From Sporopachydermia quercuum (taxonomy: Eukaryota), in NCBI GenBank assembly GCA_001599295.1, contig BCGN01000006.1:744001-807999 (forward strand): 63,999 nucleotides of DNA. The letters run 5' to 3'. The notes under the pieces were generated by a model. That model saw only the letters and a list, made by a program, of their open reading frames with translations. It had not been told where the DNA came from and did no database searches. Position numbers and translations under genes: made by a program. Each line of letters starts with the position of its first letter. The stretch's first letter is position 1. Below are positions 3,275 to 56,416 of this stretch, one piece after another.

Positions 3275-5248
<1,974 letters not shown>

Positions 5249-38944: not shown

Positions 38945-41014
38945 ATGTCAGCCCTTGTTTTTGCTAGAACACTGACTCGCTCAGGAGTCAGGTTGGCTCA
39001 AAGGTATGTATTTATGAGAATCAGATTGCCTCTTGAATATTTTAAGGTCATTGATGATGTGTTGTAGAATTTGTTACAGCACAAGAAGAAGAAGAAGCGG
39101 GAAGCGCTTCAAAATTGTTTTTACCAGAACTTAATGCATATTACTGAGGATGCATGGGAGTACATCGCTTTTGAGCTGTTTGATCCAGATAGCATGGTAT
39201 TACCAAATTGCCAGAAAACATTAGTAGCCATTAGCTCATAATTCATGGCTGTTTTATGGTTAATTCTTATTGATTTATCATAATTCTTGTGTTGGTATCG
39301 AAGTCCTCACTCAATTGCCAATCTCAGCCACATGATGTATTTAGCCAGGGTTATTACATGAGGTGTAGGGGTATGCATGGATTAAGCATGAACATTACTA
39401 GAGCTTAACGTTATTATACATAATAATACAGAATTATGCATGATGGAGTTAGTTCATTTATCCATCACAAATAGATATTCTGACTCGGTTCAAGACATTA
39501 AATTAGTGATGATATAATACTACTATATTCAATACAAAACATTCATGGTCATCAATGGTTTTTTTCGATATTCGGTGAAAACGACATTTTATTGGTATTT
39601 AAAATGTATTGTCAATCTACTTGAGACTTATACATACTAACATGGGATTTCATTCATTAGATATCCAAATATCTTGGCGAATCAATTACGATTCTATGCT
39701 TCATTTCCTCCACATACTGTGATTGATATGCCAGCTTTATCACCTACTATGACCCAAGGAAATTTAGCTTCCTGGTCTAAAGCTGTAGGTGATAAGCTGG
39801 AACCAGGTGATGTGCTTGCTGAAGTTGAAACCGATAAAGCCCAAATGGATTTTGAATTTCAAGAAGAAGGGTATTTGGCTAAGATTTTGGTTGACGGTGG
39901 TACAAAGGACATTCCAGTTGGAAAGCCAATTGGTGTTTATGTTGATAATGCTGATGATGTTGCTGCATTTGCTGATTTCACTGCCGAAGATGCTGGCGGA
40001 TCTGCTCTACCTCCTAAGGAAGAACCAGCTCCTGCAAAGGAAGAACCCAAGCAAGCTGCTAAAGAAGAATCAAAACCTGCTTCATCTGCTCCTACCTCCA
40101 AACCTGCTGCATCTAAGGCCCCAGTTGGTAGAATATTTGCCTCTCCTTTAGCAAAGACTATTGCTTTAGAAAAAGGTATCTCTTTGAAAGAAGTAAAGGG
40201 CACTGGTCCTAATGGTAGGATTACTAAGAAGGATGTCGAAGCTTACACTCCAGCTGCCAGTTCTCCTTCTGTTTCTGCTGCTCCTTCGGCTACTGCTGCT
40301 GCTGCTGCTGCTTCTTACGAAGATATTCCTCTCACCAATATGCGTAAGACTATTGCCACTAGACTTTCACAATCCAAGAACACTGCACCCGATTACATTG
40401 TTTCATCCACGTGCTCTGTTTCCAAACTTCTCAAGCTTCGTGTTGCCTTAAATGCCAATGCTGATGGTGAGTATAAGATTTCCGTTAACGATATCTTAGT
40501 TAAAGCCATTGCTATTGCCGCTAAGAAGGTCCCAGCTGCCAACTCTCATTGGATTGAATCAGAATCTGTCATCCGGCAATATAACAACGTCGATGTCTCG
40601 ATTGCTGTTGCTACACCATCAGGATTAATCACGCCAATTGTGAAAAATGTCGATGCTAAGGGATTAGTCGAAGTCTCCAAGGCTGCAAAGACCTTAGGTA
40701 AGAAAGCCAGAGATGGCAAATTGGCTCCCGAAGAGTATCAAGGAGGTACCATCACTATCTCTAACATGGGTATGAACCCTGCTGTTAGTATGTTCACAGC
40801 TATTGTTAATCCTCCTCAATCAACCATTATTGCTGTTGGAACTGTTGAGAAGAAAGCTATTCCCGATCCTGAAAGCGAGATTGGCTTTGCTTTTGATGAC
40901 ACCATTACTCTCACTGCATCATTTGATCACAGAGTTGTAGATGGAGCTGTAGGAGCTGAGTTCATGAAAGCTTTGAAAAGAGTAGTGGAAAATCCTTTAG
41001 AATTGATGCTTTGA
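38945..41014 (+). CDS. LAT1: Pyruvate dehydrogenase E2 dihydrolipoamide acetyltransferase (~470 aa, 2 exons)
   Basis: Exon 1 38945-39003 encodes the presequence [20 protein letters not shown]; intron 39004-39660 (GTATGT..TACTAAC..TAG, 657 nt); exon 2 39661-41014. Lipoyl domain ([13 protein letters not shown]), E3-binding domain ([14 protein letters not shown]), catalytic DHRVVDG. Confidence 0.96.
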
Positions 41015-43388
41015 TCTGCTCATTGGTATTATATTAAACGTTTATTGATGCACTTGGCTACAAGCAATAAAAGTTTTGGTCCTGTATCTTGATTGATTAG
41101 CTATTTTAAATTTGTTGTAAGATAAATTGTCAGAATTCTTAAAATATTGGTCAATTGTGATCATGTATTAAGTAACATTCGTAAAAAGTAACTATCATCA
41201 GTAAAGGTTAAATTAGAATAGTTAAATTAGAATTGTGTTAATCTGTCTTATTACCTGTTCTGTTTGATCATNGATGTATATTAACAAAAAGTACATATAA
41301 TCATAATAACTCAACTCAATAATGAGGATCAATCAAAGCATCGGACAATTTTCAGCAAGTTAATCATTTACACACCCATTAATTATCTTCCTATCAACGT
41401 TCTTTTTCACTCCAGGTACTTTTCTAATACTATATGATACGCTCTTTTTTCCCTAGTTCATAATAAGAGAATCCCATCTATAATGCGTCTTGCATATCAC
41501 ATGAACGACTTCTATAGATATTAATGATTTTCACAGTATTTGCAATATTCACATGACGCTTTGATAGTTACAAGAAAATTCAAAGCCGATAAAGTCAAGC
41601 ATTTCAGGTCACTTGCAATACAATCTAGAGTTTCTCTAGACCCCTTAAAGATGTTAAGTTAACTCTAGACCCGCAGACGAATTTATATCAAGTTAACCGT
41701 TCATCCTAGATGTTTACGATAATCATTATAATTTTAGAAGTGTACAGAATAAATATAGCAGATTGACATAAGATTGACATAAGATTTCATTTCAAAGGTA
41801 AATTGCAGTTAGAAGACGGAATGGTATGATGAGTTCTCCTTCAGGAACAAAACTTTACAGGAAGAAGAAAGGTTCGTGGACAATTGAGTAAGATGAGCAA
41901 ACGCGATGATTTGTCACCAATTCAATCAGATGGATTTCCTATACAGGTCTCTCATCTCATTTGGTACCTGAAAGGGGATCTCATTACCTTTGTCCTTACT
42001 GTTTCATTACTTCTTGATGATAGTGCCTCAGACAAGAATTTGCCCCTGAAGTAGAATTTCTCTAAAGTGGCATGAACAACTCAGAAAGGGTTGTTTTTGA
42101 CGTTAATAGTAGACTGTATTGGTTTTCTACTAAGGATTTACAATGCTAGTGTTCTAATTTATGATATATAAAGCAGGTTTTGTAGGTTATTCGAAGATTG
42201 ACCATTCAAGGATTCGGTTGCAAACGCATGTGTTCAGTGATTAAGCGACATTAATTTCATCATAAAGCATAAGGTATGTTTCCTAAATGAAAAGATACCT
42301 TTTTCTTATTGGGAATAATCGGACTTCATTAGGAATTAGCCTTTTGTTGAAGTATTTTTATTTAGCTGAATTTACTGTTCAAATTCTGTAAGTGCCCAGC
42401 CAAGAGGATTAATATTGGGAATACAGTAGCTTAGGCCATCAAAATACTATTCAGAATTAAGGTGTCATGTTTAATTGAAGAGCAAATGAAAATGTGTTGT
42501 TTAGATCCAAAAATATCAACGTATAGTCTAGAACGGGGGAGCTCGTATTTTCGCAGTTTCAATCTCCCAGGTTTACAGAATTTGGTTGGTCGGCTTTTGT
42601 TTAAACTTGAGTGCAAGGCTTAAGAATGAGAAAATAGAACACTAAGTGGGCAAAACGTCCAAGTTTTGCTATAGTTGTATGTTATTTTCGGTATTTCTGC
42701 TGACATTTTAACTATAAACCTTAACCTGCTTATAGTTAAGGTTGTGTAAATGTTTTTAGGCAAGTTTTAGCCAAAAACTCTATTTTGAACGTTACTTTTA
42801 GAGTTTGTTTATCCTCATATTTGAAATTATAGGATCTCGCTTCCAAGCATCTGAGGAACCAGAGCGATGGGGTCAATTCCATGCCTATACTACTTATATG
42901 TTGTTGATTATGAATTTATTTCGATACATATGATACCAGGTTTGGTTAACAAGAGAAGACGAAATAAAATAACTTTATAAGTGTGGGCGAAATATTATTA
43001 AGATCTCTTGGATATAAAGACTAAACATCAATTTTTTGTGCTGTCTACGGCCATTGACTTGAACAGATAGTTCTAAACAAAGTCGTAGCAAAATAAACTC
43101 CTTCCCTTTTTTATTTTATTATATTGTTAAGCAGCTAAACGATTACTATGGTCGAAGTGTCTCCTGTCAAATGGATCACTAGATATACAGTAGAAGGCCA
43201 TGCCATAGAGCTTTCAGCCAATGTTGAATTAGTATTTTTTCAATTATTTCCAACTATATATACATAATTTCAATATAACTACAGCTTGTTACAGTTTGCC
43301 CAAACAGTCTTTTCAAGTAAATAGGGCAGAAGAATTTTCAAGCACATTCTATGCACTTAGCAACTTCTTTCACTCATCTAGCTTGTTG

Positions 43389-43431
43389 TGAGATTACTAC
43401 CTATTCAATAGAGGATTAGGTAGTAATCTCA
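43389..43431. repeat. Perfect 15-bp inverted repeat with 13-nt spacer
   Basis: TGAGATTACTACCTA (43389-43403) and TAGGTAGTAATCTCA (43417-43431). Confidence 0.9.
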
Positions 43432-44002
43432 ATAAAATGATTACTTGTATATTATTGGTTACAACCTTTAACCCATAGTCCTGGTTTAGCACTCTCAATC
43501 GTTTAGCGTAAGAAACATGTGCAACAGTGACCCATTATTGCTCTAACTATTTGAGAGAATTCCCAATATGTGCCAGTGTTTTGAATTGACGAAATATTTA
43601 TTAGATGAGATTTAATTTAAATTAAAGACTAAATTCATAACTAATCAGAAAACTAGTTGATTGGTAGTAGTGATTCCATTGTTTTGAATTAAAGGGATTC
43701 AAATTGGTGGTCCTATTTGATCAAACAATTAATGAGGTTAGGGATGAGAAGAGTGATTTATTGGATGCTATTATTTTTAAGAATAAGCAATCCTCGACAA
43801 TTTTGTTTACATATTGAAGTCATTTAATCAATTGTACAAATAAATGCGTATATTTTGGTAAAATATAATGATCACTTTTAACGAAGCATTCCTTATTCTA
43901 ATTCAATAAGTGTATAACCAACAAATGAATTACATTAAGNTCATCTTTGNTTAATCGGATGAACTTGAAACATATCAATTAATTGATTCAATTCTAGAAT
44001 AA

Positions 44003-44026
44003 AAGCCATAATACATATTATGGCTT
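44003..44026. repeat. Near-perfect palindrome with 11-bp arms
   Basis: AAGCCATAATA-CA-TATTATGGCTT. Confidence 0.85.
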
Positions 44027-46956
44027 CAATATATTGTATAGAAACTAATCCAGCTAATCGTAGATAGTCTATTGGAAATCTAGTGGTTTACTCCAAGACG
44101 CATGAACATATATATCTCATCAAAGTAGCAACTACATTCGAAGCCACTATAACTAATTTTCTGTCTACATGTACCATAGTAATATGCAAAGTAATTATGA
44201 ACTATGTAAATATTTCTCAGCTAGTAATGTAAATCTCATTACAACTATTAGTTACTACCTCTCCTTTGTGAGTTTAAACTCCAGTTCCTGAATAGGAAGG
44301 TCAAATTTCTTTCGAGGCAATATTTGACTTAAACTTCTCATACCTGTTTTGGGAACCAAGGCAACCTTATCTTGTATCAAAATAAAGTTAGAGGTTAGAA
44401 CAGCCATTTCATTAACCGAAATCAATGAGGAATACTTAACACAAACATGCAAAATACAATGTTAGTAATCTTGGATAGATGTATTCCATTTTCTTGGATA
44501 TTCTATCATATTCGGAAATTACATGAGAAACAGAACTAAGATTTCATGTCTCAAATGCAATCGATACAAGGGACCCAACCTATTTTTTCTTTTTAATTAG
44601 CTAATCATAATCAAAAATTAAGAATATAACCGTTCATTTGAAATGGTGACAAGATTCCAGACAGTTTTACAAAGCGAAAATTCTCATTGAATACATCAAT
44701 GAAATAAAAATACTAATTACACAGTTTAACTCATGGTGTATTGAATACTTAAAGGCCAAAAACACCACATTTGATCATCGAAAATAAGAGCTTTAGATAT
44801 ATATATCGAATATGTTCTTTATTACAAGGCTCCTCCACCTTAGCAGAAAATTCGGAGAGAATCGGTAATTATTTGATTGAGTTTTTATAAAGCCGTATGG
44901 TAGATAGAATTGAGTGAAGTTCTTTCTTAAAAGCATAAGGTTAGCCACACTTGATTGCAAATTAAAGAATTGACGAGTACATGTTTAGGACACATTTTTT
45001 AGACGTAACTACAACGAGGAATAAAAACGGTTAGATAACATGAGCTGTATACTTTGGGAAAAAAATGTAATAAGTGAAGTAAGGGAGAAGCTGTTATTCA
45101 TGTTCTAGAGCAGGGAACAGAACGCCAAACAATTGTTATTGGCCTTTAGTTAGCACCAGTACTCTGGTAAAATGCCATGTAACGTTAACCATCTTCAGTA
45201 CATATTAATACTTTTTTTAGTTATAACTGACTTGAAATATTAAATTGATAGGCTATATGGTGCAATTAAAATTTGTAGATAAGTGGGAAATCAAAAATTC
45301 TGGTATTGTAATCTTGCGTTATGGGATAACTTATGCCATCTGAATCCCGTGCCTCTACATCGTTTCACTTAGGTTAGTTCACAGATTGACTGAAATTAAT
45401 AATATGGTAAAACATAAAATGAAAATTCAAACCTTATTGTGCTATATAGTGAAATTACTCTTTTCATGCGTAGTTACATCCTAATTGGACCTAACTATGA
45501 GCACCAGATAGGCTGTGCCTATATTTAATGTATATAGTTTATGAACCCTGACGTTGAATAAACTTGTCCCTCTTACGTGAAAACACGACAATTACACGTG
45601 AATTCTTTAGTATTTCAAATCCAGGTTTTCTTATGACACTCTTCCAACTGTTCTATGAATTCATAATACCATACTATATTCTATGAACAGATAGATATCC
45701 ACATTTTCTTAAATTAAAAATGGAAGATGGCTGCAAAAAGTTATTTTTCTGTTCACGAAAATAGTTGTATTACATACATTATCATTGCCATTGCTCTATC
45801 ATTCTGACCAGCAGCTGATAAATGCCTTTATGTCTTATTATTTTGTAGTATGTCATGAAGAATATTTGAATCTTAAAGCTGTTTTGTCCTATTTCTAAAG
45901 CTCCATTTGTAGGTGGTGAATCTTTGAAATAGGAAGGATAAATAGAAAAGGCATATGCTCATGCATATTTGTACATGTCTTGTAGAGGGTTTCTAGTCGA
46001 AAATAAAGTTGTTCAAAAAGTTAACCTGAATAACTTGAAATTCTTTAATTTTCTTCTTCAAAGCTCTACATACAACAAACCTACAACTGTGTATGCAGTT
46101 GAATGGGAGTTCTTTCTTATTGACAGAACAGGGTTTCGTAAAGGCAATTCAAAATATTCTGGTCAATTACGAAGATTAGCCTTACATTCATAAAAAGAAT
46201 TATGTGAAGGAAGAGCTTTCTTATTACATCCATCATTCTATTCATATCTACTTCATCAAGAATACTCTTCTCATCCTCAAATTCAATCAATACCATGGAA
46301 CTTGTTCAATCCAATGGTCAAACATCGATCGACATGTCTACCTAAGCACAAGAACCCTGAACAATATTTAGCTTCATTGTGCTTAACGCCTGAACTATCA
46401 TAGTATATTTTCGTGTGAAATACATATCAGTTATTCCTTTAAAATTTTTATAGGAAATGTCTTTCAATGTTCATTAGCTCATCTACATACTTCATCCCAT
46501 TTTGGTGATACTAACAATCGATTAGGAAAGGCTCTATCACTTTTGGGAGAAACATTTAACTTTTTAATTCGGTTAATAATGTTTCATTAAACAATTTTCA
46601 GTCTAGGCCCTCTAAGTTAGTATTGGAAGACGAAAATTAAGGTTTGAAATAACAAAAGCCAAAGGCTCTTTTAAGGTTATACACTATGATTAATTTTTTC
46701 TATTAACTGAATTTCTCTATTTCTCTTGATTCATATAGTTACATCTTAGGATACCACTTCTCGTGCTGGCTAGAGTCTAAAATAATATATATACAGGGAT
46801 AGATCCCCCAAGTTTTCAAGTATTTCATTTTCTTCCTTTCTCTACTCTTTTTGTTCCCTTTTTAACTATCAATCATCCATTAACAGTATCTCAGCAAGAT
46901 TCAAGAAATTTGTGTTGCAAGCCAAGTATCTTCGTTCGTTAATTAAATCATTCAAA

Positions 46957-47196
46957 ATGCAATTCAAAGTCCAAGCTCTTATCTTCTTGCTCCTCAGCTA
47001 TGTTATGGCTGTTTTCGCTCTCCCTGAAGCTATCACTTTAGCTCCAAGAGCTGTCACCACCGTTGACATTAACCTTGGTACCACCGTTACTATTTGGGAA
47101 ACTGTAACTGTGTGGGTCACCATCACCAGATGGCATACTGTCCAATCTACTATCACTCTTCCTTACATTCCTACTAGTTCTAATTCAAGTGCTTGA
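46957..47196 (+). CDS. Small secreted Thr/Val/Trp-rich protein of unknown function (79 aa)
   Basis: AAAATG start at 46957; signal-peptide-like MQFKVQALIFLLLSYVMAVFA; short spacer ending in APR; three TxTxWx hexamers. Codons typical of highly expressed yeast genes (GCT, GTC/GTT, ACC/ACT, ATC, TTC). TATATATA at 46786-46793 followed by a pyrimidine tract. Confidence 0.75.
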   Translation: MQFKVQALIFLLLSYVMAVFALPEAITLAPRAVTTVDINLGTTVTIWETVTVWVTITRWHTVQSTITLPYIPTSSNSSA

Positions 47197-49312
47197 ATGA
47201 TTTAGAAGTGATTTGATGATACCTTGCTGAAGATGTTGGAGTATGACTGGGGGAATCGATAAGGATATTGCTGTGTTTCAGGCAAAACATTGTGGAAGGT
47301 GTAATGCAAGATAATCATTGCTTTCATCCTATTGATGTTAACGAGTCGAGTGTTTTTTGTGTATTATAGGTCGTTGCATGCATATAAGTCGGAGTTTCAC
47401 TTTAACTTACAACTTTCATTTCTGGTTCTCGGTCACTGTGATCGTGCTTTATAATCTAAATTTAATGGCTGGTTTACAATAAATTTTCATAATACTGATA
47501 ATTCTATAGTTGAATTGTGGGATCGGGATCCATTGTAGGATTTGTGCAATAGATGAGTTTCTGCTGCGTAGGTCAATTCGATGGAAGGTTAGTGAGGTGC
47601 TGCAAGTAGCCGAGAGACTAAGTAAACTTTAGTTGTAATTGGGTTTTGGTATGCTAAGCATTTTAAGCCTCTCAAACTTTATTGTGAATTCCAGTGGACG
47701 CGTGTTGCCTGTTAGTTTATAAGCAGATCTTATCGTTCAACAAAAGAAACTGAATACTAGCTAAAAAAATCCAAAATTATTTTTCTTTTTTTAAATTGAA
47801 CTAACTATGGATTGAAATATTAAAACGTCAGCTTCTTTCTTTCCTTTCCCTTTCAGTAAAGAAAGGTGTAGAAGGTTTTTCTGAAAGTTTGAAAGAAAGA
47901 GTATATTCAGGCAACCAGCCTTTTTTTAGGACGCTATAGATAATTAATCGGTGGTATCTCTTTCTGATAACTTTTGCATTGATAAATATAACTTTGAGTT
48001 CAACCTAAACCGTAACCTTAAAAAAATTATATGATAAAACTTGAGTAGTTTAAGAATACCAAACTAGGTATTTACATACGTTAATCAATGAGGAAAGGCA
48101 GAATGATGATATACTGGTAAAAAATAATATTATCTCCAAGTAATCCGATTAATTAATCACTTAACTATATATAGTTTTTGAGGTAAGTAATGCCTTGGCC
48201 TTGCCATGTGTTTATCAACAATTTTCGTCACTTTCAGAAAGAATGAGCAGAAACAGGAGATGATATACCGATCGCCACGATTCATAGTTTGTTGGATCAT
48301 AATATAGTTGATTGTATGTGATTCTCACATTACTCTTGATAGAAAATTAACAGGAAAGCACGTTTCGATTCATTTAATTGATTGCAAATCAAGAATCCTT
48401 GTCTGCTGATGAAAGTGAACTGTTAGTGTAGATGTTTACGTGGAAAAGCTCATTCAATAAAACTTTGAAGAAAAGTCAAATAACAAAATCAACGATTAAG
48501 TCTTTCTCATCAGTCGAATAAAACATTTTCCAGAATTCCTGATTACACACTTGTTTGTCTGATTGAAATATCAATGCAGATTTAACAGAAAATTCAAGGT
48601 TAGTTTTAGGTTTGAATTTTGTAGAGTTAGTAGTAGGTTATTCTACCAATTATGCTGGCGGTTCAATTCAATTGAAGACTATTGAACTTCATGGAAATAC
48701 CAGACTCATCAACAATTTTTATCTTAATCGCGCAATTCAATTGTAATACTTATAATTCATTTTAGATCTTGTTTAAGCTTTACATTTCTGTAGTTATGAA
48801 GGTTTTCGGTTGTCTCTCTCAGCAAATCTGTCTCAAATATCGAATATCTCTCTCTTCCTTTGCATTACAACATTCATTGGCGTAAACCTAGTCTAATGAA
48901 TCACAACCAAGGCCTACAGGCAGAACTCCCTTCACTTTCAGCTAAAATGTTCTACATAAGTTGATCAAAAACAATTCAGGTGTTTGAGCTCAAGGATCAA
49001 ATTGCTACAGTTCACATTTTTTTTGTAATCAATACAGGTTTATTATTCATCAAGCATTAACAATAATAGAAGAGAAAAGGTAAAAAATAATCTACCTTTA
49101 AAATCCTCATACGATTCAAGTAAAATCGTGAACAATCATAAAACAAAAACATAAAATAGAAAATAGAAAATTATAATAGGAACAGAAATAACCACTATAA
49201 TGTTCTGATATAATAGACAAGATCGGTAAAAAGAAGACTGGTGTCGGAGCCAATAGAACTTTAGAGGCCATTCACCTTCATTCAGAGATATTGTAAGTAT
49301 GATCAACAATCC

Positions 49313-50905
49313 TTATGAAATGATAAATCCTTCATAATTATTCTTAGCACACTTAGCTAATCTATGACGATAGTCAGGTAATCCACCTAAATAGTTCAAA
49401 GGTTCAATCTTCTTACCAGGAATGTTAGCACCCATATACCAGGACTTAGCTTTGGGGAATAATGATTTATTAGTCAACTCGATATTTCTATTGGTCCACT
49501 CTTCCTCATATTCTTCTTGAGGACTGATTTTACTCTTACCAGAATCAAGGACATCTTTAATCAATTTAACAATAAATATGCCTTGACCCTCAACACAACT
49601 TGGACCATTACAGAAAGCAGTTGGTGCTTGAGGACCATAAGTATAGAACATATTAGGGAATCCAGCAACACTCAAACCGTAAGAAGTTTGAAGACGCTCA
49701 GCCCATTTATCCTTAAGTTTGAGGCTATTCTCACCTTCGATGTCAATTTGATTATAACTACCAGTTAAAGAGTCAAATCCTGTAGCTAAAACTAATAGAT
49801 CGAATTCAATTTCTGTACCGTCTTTCAGAATTGCACCNTTTTCTTTGAAATCAACAATTGGATTAGCATTCCAATCAACAACATCAACGCTATCACTATT
49901 GAAACATTCATAAAAATTTTGTTCCAGTGATGGTCTCTTAGTACCAAAAGGATGAGGTTGTATCTTGGGAGCTAAGATTTCTCTCTTCCTTGGATCCTTG
50001 ACTCTTGCTGCTGTCTTTCTTTGCCAATAGTCATAAGCAATATCATTTGCTTTTTGATCAAATAAAATATCATTATAAGTAGCAAGCCAAAATTCGAATC
50101 CACCAGCAGAAAACAAATCATCAAAGAACTTTTCTCTCTGTTCTGGTGTATCTTCAAAAACACTCTTCGAAGAGAAATCAAATTGCATACCACCAAATGT
50201 ATCTAATCTGTCCTCATAGAATTTTTCATTCTTACCTGGTTGTTTATCGTTAGGACCATACTTTTCTTGTTGCATTGGTAAACATAAGTTAGGAGTTCTT
50301 TGGAAAACAGTAACTTCCTTAGCAACTTCTGCAGCTTCTTGAGTTACTTGAATACCTGTTGAACCAGTACCAATTATAGCAATCTTTCTGTTAGTCATAT
50401 CAACCCCTTCTAAAGGCCAGTCAGAAGTATGATAACACTCACCTTGGTAATTATGTAAACCTTTGAAGTTAGGGACAAATTTCTTAGCAGCAAACCCAGT
50501 ACAAGGTAAGAAGAAAGTAGCAGTAGCATGGACACCATCTTGGGTGTGAATATGCCATTTATTTTCGTGGCTCTTATAATGAGCAGCAGTGACAAAACTA
50601 TTAAGGGTGACATCAGGCCAAAGATTCAATGTATCACCAGCAAATTTGAAATATTTCTGAAGTTCAGGCCAAGCAGGATATTTTTCAGACCATTTCCAAG
50701 ACCAAAGCTTTGGATTTGATAACTCATAAACAGGAATTGACGAGTCAACTCTTGCTCCTGGATAGCGGTTATGACACCAGGTGCCACCTAGCATTTCACC
50801 AGAATCAAAGATATGAACTTTGAGTCCTAATTCTCTTAATTTATCTAAGAAATAGATACCGGAGAAACCAGCTCCAATAATAATAACATCGTATTCATCA
50901 ACCAT
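49313..50905 (-). CDS. Type I Baeyer-Villiger monooxygenase, cyclopentanone 1,2-monooxygenase-like (530 aa, intronless)
   Basis: Two Rossmann motifs (GAGFSG, GTGSTG); BVMO fingerprints GGTWCHNRYPGARVD and YQGECYHTSDWP; QRTPNL, PHPFGTKRPSLEQ, ATGFD, GPQAPTAFCNGP and SWYMGANIPGK resemble the CPMO/CpnB clade. Confidence 0.93.
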   Translation of the reverse strand: MVDEYDVIIIGAGFSGIYFLDKLRELGLKVHIFDSGEMLGGTWCHNRYPGARVDSSIPVYELSNPKLWSWKWSEKYPAWPELQKYFKFAGDTLNLWPDVTLNSFVTAAHYKSHENKWHIHTQDGVHATATFFLPCTGFAAKKFVPNFKGLHNYQGECYHTSDWPLEGVDMTNRKIAIIGTGSTGIQVTQEAAEVAKEVTVFQRTPNLCLPMQQEKYGPNDKQPGKNEKFYEDRLDTFGGMQFDFSSKSVFEDTPEQREKFFDDLFSAGGFEFWLATYNDILFDQKANDIAYDYWQRKTAARVKDPRKREILAPKIQPHPFGTKRPSLEQNFYECFNSDSVDVVDWNANPIVDFKEXGAILKDGTEIEFDLLVLATGFDSLTGSYNQIDIEGENSLKLKDKWAERLQTSYGLSVAGFPNMFYTYGPQAPTAFCNGPSCVEGQGIFIVKLIKDVLDSGKSKISPQEEYEEEWTNRNIELTNKSLFPKAKSWYMGANIPGKKIEPLNYLGGLPDYRHRLAKCAKNNYEGFIIS

Positions 50906-53900
50906 TGTGATAGTATATTGTTGTCGTAGTAGTGATTGTAGTGATAGTTGTAGTTTACTGTTAACTATAGATAAACTAATGTTTATTTGCTTTGATCTTC
51001 TGATCTTGTAACTTAGATNTATTGATGGTTATCTCAAGTACTATTTGATCTAATTAAAGATTTACTAATAAATTTCATCTCCCTTCAAAATCTTTAATCT
51101 AAATGGTAGGATACTTTTCACCTTATATACCTTTGGTGTGCTTTCTGACGAAAGGTGAATCTTATGGCTATTTTCAGCATTTTCTTATATTATACTAGAA
51201 CAATAAAGCATTTTTTGATTCACTATAACTAATAAGCTCGGAGACTTCTAATGCGATTACTTGCTTCACCAAATACTGCTTTGGTTTCTCCAACACACCA
51301 AGCTTCCATCTATAGTAAACGATTCGTACATTACCTCATCTCAGTTGGCTGGTACACATGATCAAACTAAAACTGATGATATGATAAAACAAACCTGGGG
51401 TAAATGTATGGGATTTTTGAACGAAAAAGCTTAAAAGTAGGTTTGAGATTCTTTGTTTCATGGTAAATTAAAGGAAAGAAGTCGCTTCGTTGCAAAGTTC
51501 ATCGGGAGCATGGCAGTAGAAGCAATTAAGGTTTCAGCGAAGATCTACTTCCCGTTCGAAACTCAAAGTTCAATTTGGATATAGTACAAGTGCTTTTCAA
51601 TTAATGCTAAGTGCATGATTATTAAAATAATCAAATTCCTTTTTCTCATATTATAATACGATATAACGGTATATGATAGCGGAAAACCAAGTNTTCAGGA
51701 ATAGTATGTGAGATTTCACTCCTCAACAATTTTAACTAGCATTTGAATTATGAAGAACGTAGAAAAAGGGTTTCTTAAACTCAATCTCGTAAATGTTCAT
51801 ATAAGGCAAGTGTTTTCTAAAGTTCACTAACCTCATCTCTTTAATTTCGTATGAGATTCGTCCATAATGAAATTTACCATTTAGGAATATGTAATCAATT
51901 ATGATCATAAAGGACTAAAGCAACATGATTTTTTTAACATTATCACGGTCCTGCGACACGTTAGAAAATATTAAGGTGTTTCAAAAAAGCCAATCTCCTT
52001 TTTTATTGATAGCAATTTGTTTGACTGGAAGGTAATGAATGTTCTGTTCTACTGTACTCTGTTTTTTCCCAAAAATTTTCAAATTTTTATTCCTATCTTC
52101 CTCTCGAATCATACGAAACTTTTACAGATCTCGTACTGAAAATGTAGGATGGAAAAACTGAATACGGAAGTAAATTATTGATGATGTGATCAGTATTTCC
52201 ACTTTTATACATAGGAGCAATCATCAGGATCCTGTAGTTCACCATGAGATTGCTAGTCTTCAATATTATTTCCCATGTAGGGATCATCACGATTTACAAA
52301 AAATTATAACATGATACTAAATTGTGTATAATAGCTACATAAATTTATAATATCAAATAATTCAATCGTATGATAACCTGTTGCTAAGTATCAATGTGAT
52401 GTTAATGTCCTTTCAATCAAGCAGGGACAGCCCCTCCAAGACAAGATACCAGTAAAGTTTTCTGCACCACAGCAATTCTTACAACTTACTCCTCCTTCAG
52501 AAACAAAACTGTCAACTTTATGTTCCAATTCAAGCTTTATGAAGTAAAATACATTCTTGAGGTTATCGGAATATCCGCTCCGATCATACTCTTCAGTACA
52601 AGATACCAAATACCAAACTAAGATTGCTTTTACGCTATCTTCCCCGCACTTTCTCGGAAAAAATGATGTTCTATCTTCTAATACTCTTTGAGGCTCATTT
52701 ACAATCCCCTGAATGTTTTTAACTATTCTAATTTGGCGATCATTTAATTATATTCTTTATAGTTCAATTTGTTATTCGCCGTTTTTCAATATCTACCAAT
52801 TTTCAAGGTAATTATTCATTATCTAGTTGATCAGCATATTATATTGATCATGGTTCCCATTCTTTGGCGCAGAACGGCTGGATCAACTCTCTCTGCTATA
52901 CTTCTATAGATTCGGATGTATAGATAATAACTATCAGACTGCTTTAGATTATAAGTTATGTAACCCTGGTGAGGTCAAGTAATTATTTCTTGATTATATG
53001 ACTATTCTTTCAACTTGTCTCTCATTCCATTTGATCCATTATTCCAATATCTTACTTTTCCATCTATCAAACCCTTGAGTAAGTCGGTCAGTTAGTGCAG
53101 TTTGTCCCTTAAAAATAGTACGTATCTCTTTACTAAAAGAGAATTACGAGAACAGTAGGGGAAACTAAATACGAATGCTAAACCATGTGCTTCAAGATGG
53201 GATGGTCAACTCCGAGGAGAAATCTATAGCAGTAAAGAGTAGAAAAGATATACTGATTATAATTATAAACATATAGATTTTAGATGGAAATAGTTTGCTA
53301 GTATTTGAGTCAAACTTGGATGGGTTTGAATAATAGGAGAAATCGGTTGTAAGTGCAAACAAAGTATGACCGAAACTTAACAGATGCACGGCAGAAAAGA
53401 ACTAGTAATGTGGAGCGGCTTGTATAGTAGAAACATCAAACATTATTTGACTTGAAGATAATACACAATCAAACAGCTCCGCTCCATACAATGAATTCTA
53501 ATGAGGCTTTTGCTTGAAAACAATATGGAATTTTTTGTAAGAATGGCATCTCAACTATACGAACCAATGGGTCAACGAGTGTCTAGTGCATTTAACGAAG
53601 ATAACATAACATTTATCACGTAACGTTTCTCATTATATCTTTCGCTAAACAAAAATATAATTGAATAAATGTTTCCCGCTTCTCTCATATCACACACTTT
53701 TTTTGTATCCTGATCTATTCATCAATCTACAAAAAACCAAATGAGAGTCAATCAGTTTACGATTAATTCTTCTTCTTAACGTACAAGGTTCAACATTGGA
53801 TTAAGATAAACTTTATTGAGATATGTATGAACCTTATTTTGAAAACCCAGTTTCCAGACGAGGTATTTCAAATCTTGCTAACGTTCTAACATTACTTGAA

Positions 53901-54081
53901 GGTAAGTATTTAAATGGGGATTTGCCCACTTATCAACAGTTACAGTTGAACATTTTGATAATAATGAGGAAGTTTTTACAAGACTGACAATCAAGGAAAT
54001 AACCAAACTTGATGGTAATCAAATCACACACTATCGAAGCGAAGCAACTACCAATATTCTCAATACCAATTAGTCTGCACA

Positions 54082-55305
54082 ATGGCTTTACTATCTGCTG
54101 AACAACAGGCTGCACTTAAGACCGAGGTTGATGCCATCTTGCATAAAGTGGTCTCTGGCGATGTCAAAGTACCAGGTGTTGTTGCTGGCATCACTGATAA
54201 AGATGGTAACATTCTCTATTCTGGTGAAGCAGGTGTTAGGTCACTTCGTTCAGGCAGCAAGCCAATGACACAAGACACTATATTTGCTATCTACTCAACT
54301 ACTAAAGCCTTAACTGGTACAGCTGCCTTAAGACTTTATGAAGAAGGTAAGCTTGATCTTGATGCTCCTGCCAAAGAATATTGCCCTGAGTTAGGTGATG
54401 TTGAAATAATTCAAGGATTTGATGAAAATGATAAACCAATTCTCACTAAACCAAAGAATGAAATAACTACGAGAATGTTACTTACCCACACTGCAGGTTT
54501 TGGATATTTCTTCTTCAATGAAAAATACAATAAGTTACTACAAACTACTGGTGAACCAAATATCCTGAAAGCAACCAAGAAATCTCTATTAACACCGATT
54601 TTATTTGAGCCAGGTACCAAATGGGAATATGGGACAAATATGGATTGGGCTGGGCAAGTTGTTGAGGCTATCTCTGGCAAATCTTTAGACAGTTACTTGA
54701 GAGAAATTTTGTTCACACCATGTGGAATGAATGATACAAGCTTCATCAGGAATGAAGACTTTCTCGAAAGGCAAGCTGAGATTCATCAAAGAGATTTGGA
54801 AAAGCCTGAGAACTTGACACCTTTAGGTGACTTATCACCAACTAACCCAGAAGTCCATATGGGAGGGCATGGTCTTTACTCCACTGTTGGTGATTATCTC
54901 AAATTCTTACAAGTTTGGCTTAATGATGGTAAATCTCCTATTACCGGAGCTCAAGTTCTTAAACCTGAGACAATTAAGTATGCCGAAAAGAACCATTTGC
55001 CTGTTGGCACCGAAGTTACTCAATTGCCAGCAGTCGTTCCTGAATTAACACACGCTGCTGAATTTTTCCCTGGTGATCCAAAAAGCTGGGGTATAACTTA
55101 TTTCATCAATGATGTTGATGCACCAACTGGAAGACCTAAGGGATCTTTGGCTTGGGCTGGTTTACCAAATTTGTATTATTGGATTGATCGTAAGAATGGA
55201 GTAGCAGGCTATTGGGCAACACAAGTTTTTCCATTTGCTGATCCAACTTCAGTTGGGGGATACTTCGAAATGGAATCTGCTTTATATAAGACTTTAAAAG
55301 CTTAG
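54082..55305 (+). CDS. Family VIII (beta-lactamase-fold) serine esterase, methyl acetate hydrolase AcmB-like (407 aa, intronless)
   Basis: VPGVVA, SxxK catalytic motif (FAIYSTTKA), LLTHTAGFGY, WEYGTNMDW (catalytic Tyr), GGHGLY, APTGRP, WAGLPNLYYWIDR and YWATQVFPF match my recollection of AcmB/1,4-butanediol diacrylate esterase-type enzymes. Confidence 0.88.
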   Translation: MALLSAEQQAALKTEVDAILHKVVSGDVKVPGVVAGITDKDGNILYSGEAGVRSLRSGSKPMTQDTIFAIYSTTKALTGTAALRLYEEGKLDLDAPAKEYCPELGDVEIIQGFDENDKPILTKPKNEITTRMLLTHTAGFGYFFFNEKYNKLLQTTGEPNILKATKKSLLTPILFEPGTKWEYGTNMDWAGQVVEAISGKSLDSYLREILFTPCGMNDTSFIRNEDFLERQAEIHQRDLEKPENLTPLGDLSPTNPEVHMGGHGLYSTVGDYLKFLQVWLNDGKSPITGAQVLKPETIKYAEKNHLPVGTEVTQLPAVVPELTHAAEFFPGDPKSWGITYFINDVDAPTGRPKGSLAWAGLPNLYYWIDRKNGVAGYWATQVFPFADPTSVGGYFEMESALYKTLKA

Positions 55306-56011
55306 GCAATTTGGATGCTATATGAATATGACGATACGATTTGATTGAAACTTTTCTTTAATAGTTCACGTTTTATGTTATTTTGTAAGTTTAAATTGTA
55401 ATGATAGGATAGAACCAATCGAGGTTTGGTTCCGTAGAACGAAGGTGAAAGAAGAGTAGAACTTACATGGAACATACATACAATCTTTCGACGACAAGAA
55501 TTTATGAACAGTTCTTGATTCTGCTGAACCCTTACTAGCTTTATTCTAAACATCTATGCTTCAGCTATTGTATTGGACAACTATGACTTCAATATGGCAA
55601 TTCCTTTTCCTAGACTTATTTACCTCAGGTACACAGTTTATCGAAAGTCAGTGTGTTTATTCAAAAACTACCCCGCTTTTTCTGTTTTATTGCCTTGAAC
55701 AATGATTGATTAAACTATTTATTGATTATATAATAAACAATTGTGAAAGCTTTGAAATAAAGGGAGGGAGATCTGATATTGTTTAAGGCCGGGTAATATA
55801 TGGCATTTTTGATCACTTTTTCACTTTCTGTCCAGGGCAAAGGATAAATGTGGTGGTAAAGTAAGGAAAGAAATGTCTGAAGATCAGTTATCAAAGTCAT
55901 TGGGATTAATGAGAAAGGGGAGAAAGAAGAGCAACGAACTTGGAGATCAGATCTTTAGGCAGTAAAATCGAATAGTTCACACTTTTGAGTTACATATTCT
56001 TGAAAATCACA

Positions 56012-56416
56012 ATGGCCAACGGTTTGTTTTTATCTGAAGATTCTAAGGTACGTCTTTGATACAGTGTAGTTGAAGAGAGAATAAGTATAATAATGGTTTG
56101 GAATGCTAACTTTTGTTTTCAGGAGAGAATCACCAAAGTATTAGATGCTTCCATGGTTTTCCTTCACTATGGATTTTTGCCATTAGTTTTATATCTGGGT
56201 ATGTGTTTATGTTTATTTTGTTGGGCGTTCGTTAGAATTATTGATAGATTTAGACTAATAGCTGTATTTGCAACTGTATACTAACTATGAGATTAGGATA
56301 TGCTAATAGCAACCCCAAACCTTCATTGATTGCGTAAGTTGATTTCTGCTAAATTTTGCTACATATTTATTGTTCATACTAACCAAATCAGTTTATTGTC
56401 ACCTTTCGGTAACTAA
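56012..56416 (+). CDS. TOM7: Mitochondrial outer-membrane translocase subunit Tom7 (57 aa, 4 exons)
   Basis: Exons 56012-56047, 56123-56198, 56297-56333, 56392-56416. Introns GTACGT..TGCTAAC..CAG, GTATGT..TACTAAC..TAG and GTAAGT..TACTAAC..CAG. Product [57 protein letters not shown] has the Tom7 signature LSExSKERI..HYGxxPLxLYLG..LLSP. Confidence 0.95.

Follow-up and report, generated by a model that had tools for sequence, protein, structure and literature searches.

A divergent Baeyer-Villiger monooxygenase and AcmB-type esterase gene pair in a budding yeast: a candidate ketone-degradation module

Introduction

In Sporopachydermia quercuum, a gene for a type I Baeyer-Villiger monooxygenase (BVMO) lies head to head with a gene for an AcmB-type esterase. 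The locus raises the question of whether the two enzymes work together in ketone degradation or are neighbours by chance. The pair is found in a stretch of 63,999 nucleotides (contig BCGN01000006.1, positions 744,001 to 807,999), referred to below as the window. Gene content and the closest relatives of the two proteins mark the host as a budding yeast. A BVMO gene likewise adjoins an AcmB-family esterase gene in Gordonia sp. TY-5, where acmA (acetone monooxygenase) and acmB (methyl acetate hydrolase) form a bicistronic operon of the acetone route, as described in excerpts of PMC6215540.

Candida maltosa and other yeasts convert 2-dodecanone to decyl acetate and then to decanol, probably by way of a hydrolase; in the excerpted text of that study (PMC4192553) the order ketone, alkyl acetate, alcohol is demonstrated by metabolites, and no gene or cluster is named. 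A cyclohexanone monooxygenase of a beetle-gut yeast appears without any linkage in the excerpts of PMC12628601, and the family of the present esterase is not covered in those of a review of fungal lactamases (PMC5610705). A literature search that left most subscription journals outside its range returned no description of a BVMO-esterase cluster in budding yeasts, nor of an AcmB-like or beta-lactamase-fold esterase in yeasts.

The gene pair and its setting

The locus comprises the following features (positions in the window).

39728..41014, plus strand: pyruvate dehydrogenase E2 (LAT1-like), left flank, assigned by Pfam
46957..47196, plus strand: ORF of 79 aa with a signal-peptide-like start and a Thr/Val-rich body, no family
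49313..50905, minus strand: type I BVMO, 530 aa, of the 6JDK / A. flavus 5J7X / 6Y48 subfamily, without a peroxisomal tail
50906..54081, no strand: spacer between the divergent genes, 3,176 bp with a GC content of 0.33, present once in the genome, scans for genes and RNAs negative
51122..51129, minus strand: TATA box by consensus match only, lying some 220 bp upstream of where the BVMO starts
53411..53486, no strand: two copies of TGGAGCGG in inverted orientation with 60 bp between them, some 600 bp upstream of the esterase gene, possible factor sites picked post hoc
54082..55305, plus strand: AcmB-type (family VIII, beta-lactamase fold) serine esterase, 407 aa, with S72-x-x-K75 and Y183
56013..56411, plus strand: TOM7, intron-split, right flank, assigned by Pfam, end points read by eye

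The head-to-head arrangement of the two enzyme genes was confirmed, with the BVMO at 49313-50905 (minus), the esterase at 54082-55305 (plus) and 3,176 bp between them. Each is a single open frame, intact and intronless; the BVMO translation contains one X, which comes from an N at 49838.

The left flank carries IMP4-, MSK1-, RNH201- and LAT1-like genes and the right flank TOM7 and RPL16, all by Pfam. We take these six genes to be consecutive on Saccharomyces cerevisiae chromosome XIV, where LAT1 presumably adjoins TOM7 directly. Here the LAT1-TOM7 interval spans 15 kb (41015-56012) and is gene-poor, the 79-aa orphan being the sole ORF in it other than the BVMO and the esterase. This 15 kb separation points to a lineage-specific insertion zone; a long regulatory region and a centromere-like tract are the other candidate readings. 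An insertion zone fits a recruited module and equally fits a spot where dispensable genes collect. No regulator, transporter or dehydrogenase gene was found in the LAT1-TOM7 pocket.

The part between 41 and 49 kb is nearly gene-free, has a GC content of 0.305-0.36, among the lowest of the window, and is not repeated elsewhere in the genome. The 79-aa orphan contains Thr/Val-rich repeats of the TVT type, belongs to no Pfam family, and its Atlas matches lie below 0.9. Elsewhere in the window (3275-5248, plus strand), a GCN5-like gene encodes a protein that begins with a very long acidic (Glu/Asp) tract, about 270 residues in length.

The codon use of both genes is host-like, as had been originally predicted: GC3s is 0.220 for the BVMO and 0.257 for the esterase, within the range of 15 host genes of the window (0.218-0.318). 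Codon adaptation amounts to 0.78 and 0.73, the first and third highest values of 17 genes, in a comparison that left out RPL16 and the small-ORF rows, which were out of frame. CTG falls on conserved leucine positions, so the standard code is used; an alternative CUG code was rejected.

The spacer

The spacer contains no ATG-started ORF of at least 80 aa, and its longest stop-to-stop frame is 118 aa. No relic of a protein was detected in it by tblastn with all stored proteins, and scans with Rfam and ARAGORN gave no Rfam family and no tRNA. The search for a hidden gene, RNA or repeat was equally negative in the 8 kb preceding the BVMO. The spacer is similar in length to a second divergent intergenic region of the window (3,264 bp, gene ends partly estimated) and could accommodate two separate promoters.

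The TATA consensus occurs on the BVMO side, and none is present in the spacer on the esterase strand. The heptamer GGAGCGG, picked by eye and after the fact, is found three times in the spacer, the third copy being at 52575-52581, and six times in the window against 0.94 expected. Genome-wide, TGGAGCGG occurs 116 times, compared with 52 for its reversed control. GGAGCGG was not retained as a shared-promoter motif: its selection was by eye, the genome as a whole is enriched in it, and it sits closer to the esterase gene than to the BVMO gene.

The monooxygenase

The nearest solved structures are bacterial 6JDK (554 bits), Aspergillus flavus AFL838 (5J7X, 516 bits) and 6Y48 (509 bits), all of them full-length relatives with the same motifs as the yeast protein; phenylacetone monooxygenase follows at 390 bits. 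Type I BVMOs are marked by the motifs [A/G]GxWxxxx[F/Y]P[G/M]xxxD and FxGxxxHxxxW[P/D]. The former is present at residues 40-54 and the latter at 153-164, with Tyr replacing Phe, as it does in two Kockiozyma proteins. Both GxGxxG Rossmann motifs are present (residues 11-16 and 179-184). Residues R324 and D54, which we take to be the equivalents of the catalytic residues of phenylacetone monooxygenase, are invariant in 12 of 12 aligned rows. Motifs and nearest structures thus agree with the type I assignment made originally, and the predicted activity is an NADPH-dependent conversion of ketones to esters.

Among the best 120 of 7,974 matches, the top ones belong to Kockiozyma, Lipomyces and Myxozyma (49-56% identity), followed by filamentous fungi and actinobacteria, and several close fungal matches carry the source names cyclopentanone or cyclohexanone monooxygenase. 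Neither Candida maltosa nor the related ketone-degrading yeasts are named among these 120. The BVMO is nested in a 39-row fungal clade (SH-aLRT 96) of a 62-row quick tree, where it is the sister of a paralogue on contig C4. Forcing it among the bacteria makes the tree 25 log units worse, a placement that the AU test does not reject (p 0.13). Inheritance within fungi is favoured by these comparisons, not proven.

Four other FMO-like loci of the genome gave no full-length match to the BVMO query. Comparison of two of them with solved structures identified one product as FMO1-like and the other as related to 8ACS. No esterase gene was found among the scanned neighbours of the other FMO-like loci. 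At one locus (contig C6, L228:4500-9998) the gene for an FMO1-like monooxygenase is divergent from two tandem TauD dioxygenase genes, possibly a sulfur-scavenging cluster. At another (contig C2, L230:3467-5425, minus strand) an FMO-like gene is spread over three frames, through introns or breakage, and is divergent from an MFS transporter gene.

The esterase and its yeast family

The esterase is a PF00144 protein and scores 560.9 bits on the AcmB model NF052559, for which the curated NCBI cut-off is 550; the AcmB-family membership proposed originally holds by this cut-off. Four bacterial members of NF052559 score 686-697 bits. None of 20 other fungal-type relatives scanned is above the cut-off (274-455 bits), and the paralogue on contig C2, scanned without its last 18 residues, reaches 429 bits. 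Ser72 and Lys75 of the SxxK nucleophile motif and the catalytic Tyr183 are invariant in 12 of 12 rows, and hydrolysis of methyl acetate is the predicted activity.

The best 120 matches of the esterase are 55-61% identical to it, and all organisms named there are bacterial. Such matches resemble those of a transferred gene, a picture that was altered by a search of cluster representatives. The 20 that were looked up include Tortispora (2), Pichia kluyveri, Babjeviella, Hyphopichia, Dipodascopsis, Candida viswanathii and Scheffersomyces (2), together with Saitoella, Coniophora, Exidia, Wickerhamomyces pijperi and one Bacillaceae cluster. The family was found in eight named yeast species, and it may already figure in the gene-transfer tables of large yeast genome projects.

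In a careful tree of 54 rows, the window esterase branches basally in a yeast clade of 15 rows (98/97) and has the shortest branch there (0.41); five of the 15 were called yeast-like from their make-up. The proteins of Tortispora, Pichia, Babjeviella, Hyphopichia, Scheffersomyces and Candida viswanathii belong to the same clade. The yeast and bacterial AcmB-like rows group together (100/99), apart from six other fungal rows. The AU test rejects neither a single clade of all fungi (p 0.253) nor a grouping of the window esterase with bacterial AcmB (p 0.43). The best tree favours, without proving, an old transfer by which yeasts gained the family from bacteria at an early stage; a recent import into this species is disfavoured by the yeast clade, though not rejected by the AU test of the grouping with bacterial AcmB. 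The original caution that a bacterial donor is not established remains appropriate.

Compared with the other yeast esterases, the window copy is the least diverged and the only one above the AcmB cut-off among those scored; this score, together with its short branch, suggests that it may have kept an AcmB-like job. Many of the others carry a peroxisomal-type tail (SKL, AKL or GKL type), which is present in roughly one in two of the yeast-like relatives checked, whereas the window copy ends in TLKA and has no such tail. Much of the yeast family may therefore be peroxisomal and the window copy not.

The genome encodes a second AcmB-like esterase, which ends in AKL (contig C2, L015:4357-5664, minus strand). 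Two Dipodascopsis esterases (P0264, P0448) fall with bacteria, outside the main yeast clade, and the Wickerhamomyces pijperi protein (P0336) is of the other-fungi type; several separate acquisitions possibly explain these placements.

Linkage in this genome, in bacteria and in metagenomes

The genome contains three BVMOs of this clade and two PF00144 genes, and two of the former and one of the latter are unlinked. The other two BVMO genes sit among housekeeping genes, and the second esterase gene lies between those for a capping protein and NAD kinase. With these counts and an estimated 5,600 genes, the probability of a chance adjacency is about 0.002; it rises to 0.03-0.06 when each of an assumed 30-60 hydrolases is counted as a possible partner. 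Among the best 120 matches listed, S. quercuum is the sole named yeast in which both genes were found. The eight named esterase-bearing species are absent by name from the best 120 BVMO matches, and the best 120 matches to a Dipodascopsis esterase include no protein named as Kockiozyma, Lipomyces or Myxozyma, and hence no candidate pair in Lipomycetaceae.

A BVMO accompanies the esterase at 2 of 80 bacterial loci in GTDB with flanks of up to 6 kb, and at none of the 54 whose two flanks each reach at least 3 kb; these loci are the best 80 of 105 confirmed, were retrieved with patterns drawn from the query and include many near-duplicates. The two BVMOs concerned are nearest to phenylacetone monooxygenase, are 37-40% identical to the window BVMO and belong to another subfamily. 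In the class of the Brevibacterium locus, 4 of 251 genomes have a match above the AcmB cut-off and 15 have one at 1e-80. No BVMO was present in 14 further actinobacterial stretches around esterase matches, the fifteenth genome having already been counted among the GTDB loci. An AraC-type regulator gene adjoins the AcmB-like gene at 24 of the 80 loci.

In many Rhodobacteraceae-type genomes (L030-L057), a near-identical AcmB-like gene lies behind an AraC-type regulator gene, in many cases close to transposase- or conjugation-like ORFs; this arrangement suggests that the esterase gene travels as a mobile cassette.

None of 80 metagenome loci of this BVMO subfamily contains a PF00144 gene. These are the best 80 of 520; 41 are longer than 10 kb, about 24 look fungal (6 of them longer than 10 kb), and at GC 0.46-0.73 none is yeast-like, that is, low in GC. 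An alpha/beta hydrolase is common to 22 of the 80, mostly as one near-identical island. Pairing of a BVMO with a hydrolase is thus common in general, and membership in the AcmB family by itself says little about a BVMO partner.

The parallel with acmA/acmB drawn by the original prediction survives in part. The esterase does belong to the AcmB family; the BVMO is of a fungal subfamily, distinct from that of the two BVMOs beside bacterial AcmB-like genes, and in the bacterial loci retrieved AcmB-like genes are rarely beside a BVMO. In contrast to the Gordonia operon, the yeast pair is eukaryotic, divergent, 3.2 kb apart and not co-transcribed. The proposed pairing of two intronless genes, head to head across 3.2 kb, stands as an arrangement, and is weakened as a cluster by an esterase family widespread in yeasts and by paralogues that are unlinked in the same genome. 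The evidence for a cluster consists of adjacency and precedent: the two genes are adjacent and non-homologous, and their families suggest consecutive steps.

Discussion

The best explanation, to which a probability of roughly 0.48 is given, is a lineage-specific two-gene module that would convert a methyl ketone to an alkyl acetate and this to an alcohol and acetate, with medium-chain ketones likelier substrates than acetone. The BVMO, using FAD, NADPH and O2, would insert oxygen beside the carbonyl of an aliphatic methyl ketone, and Ser72 of the esterase would split the resulting alkyl acetate into acetate and a primary alcohol, which may feed acetyl-CoA and fatty-acid metabolism. Both enzymes are probably cytosolic, since neither has a peroxisomal tail. 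Excerpts of PMC4966971 describe the conversion of C8-C12 2-alkanones, and of few monocyclic ketones, by 5J7X, the 2-alkanones yielding alkyl acetates. A genome search found no GMC alcohol oxidase or other GMC oxidoreductase, a result short of proof of absence, and methanol derived from acetone would for this reason probably be unusable; this loss of methanol and the BVMO subfamily favour medium-chain ketones over acetone. Most likely the pair was assembled inside this yeast lineage and did not arrive as an operon: the BVMO would be a fungal inheritance, and the esterase would come from a long-established yeast family with kinship to bacterial AcmB. Co-regulation of the genes and selection for their linkage would be expected of such a module.

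The module reading draws on the consecutive reactions, for which there is precedent, on the adjacency probability of 0.002 in the narrow count, on the alpha/beta hydrolase gene that often adjoins bacterial BVMO genes of this subfamily, on the high codon adaptation of both genes and on the finding that the most AcmB-like of the scored yeast-type copies is the one beside a BVMO. Against it stand a pairing seen in no second genome, the unlinked paralogues, the rarity of BVMOs at bacterial esterase loci, the lack of a PF00144 gene at the 80 metagenome BVMO loci, the adjacency probability of 0.03-0.06 with any hydrolase counted, a pocket with no regulator or transporter gene and the unexceptional length of the spacer. 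A working ketone module and a chance neighbourhood come out at about even odds. If the genes are chance neighbours, which is quite plausible, two dispensable enzyme genes have come to share a gene-poor pocket that also houses an unrelated orphan ORF; the esterase would be a general hydrolase of short esters such as ethyl acetate, and the esters made by the BVMO would be handled by other hydrolases. The same unlinked paralogues fit this account, as do the commonness of the esterase family in yeasts (eight species, none named among the best BVMO matches), the bacterial AcmB-like genes that mostly lack a BVMO and in 24 of 80 cases adjoin an AraC-type regulator gene, and a long spacer with its motif pair near the esterase only. 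It has more difficulty with the adjacency probability of 0.002 in the narrow count, with the position beside a BVMO of the scored yeast-type copy most like AcmB, and with two reactions that are consecutive.

A stronger version of the module reading, in which the yeast has rebuilt the acmA/acmB logic in the LAT1-TOM7 block from an inherited fungal BVMO and the least diverged offshoot of an anciently acquired bacterial AcmB, under shared control and for growth on acetone, 2-propanol or short methyl ketones, is doubtful. Less likely still is a linked module for other substrates, turning cyclic or terpenoid ketones into lactones, or acting on aryl ketones and on aldehydes to give formate esters, perhaps in the detoxification of plant or insect volatiles. 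The cyclopentanone and cyclohexanone monooxygenase names of close fungal matches (best 120 of 7,974) speak for it, as do the action of 5J7X on aryl ketones and aldehydes and the discussion of beetle-gut yeast BVMOs in terpenoid detoxification, according to excerpts of PMC4966971 and PMC12628601. However, very few monocyclic ketones are converted by 5J7X in the former excerpts, AcmB is an acetate-ester hydrolase in those of PMC6215540, and the pocket contains no dehydrogenase gene. That both genes arrived together from a bacterial acmA/acmB-like operon is very improbable. Their lack of introns, the bacterial names among the best 120 esterase matches (55-61% identity) and the AU tests, which reject neither the esterase with bacterial AcmB (p 0.43) nor the BVMO with bacteria (p 0.13), speak for such an event, but the top BVMO matches are from Lipomycetaceae and filamentous fungi, with the 39-row fungal clade at SH-aLRT 96 in the quick tree, and the BVMOs beside bacterial AcmB-like genes are of another subfamily at 37-40% identity. 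The best esterase tree, moreover, groups the window copy with other yeasts (98/97), and the two genes are divergent.

Ketone breakdown in yeasts is known from metabolites, and the literature found offers no gene for the hydrolase step; the pair supplies two concrete candidates. If the genes are co-regulated, they would be a case of convergent clustering in bacteria and yeasts, and if the acmA/acmB logic was indeed rebuilt, budding yeasts would for the first time have named genes for such a route, with the AcmB-like esterases an early bacterial gift to the subphylum. If they are mere neighbours, the locus adds one more BVMO of possible biocatalytic use. Either way, the esterase family of budding yeasts, which sides with bacterial AcmB and stands apart from other fungal PF00144 proteins, merits a phylogeny.
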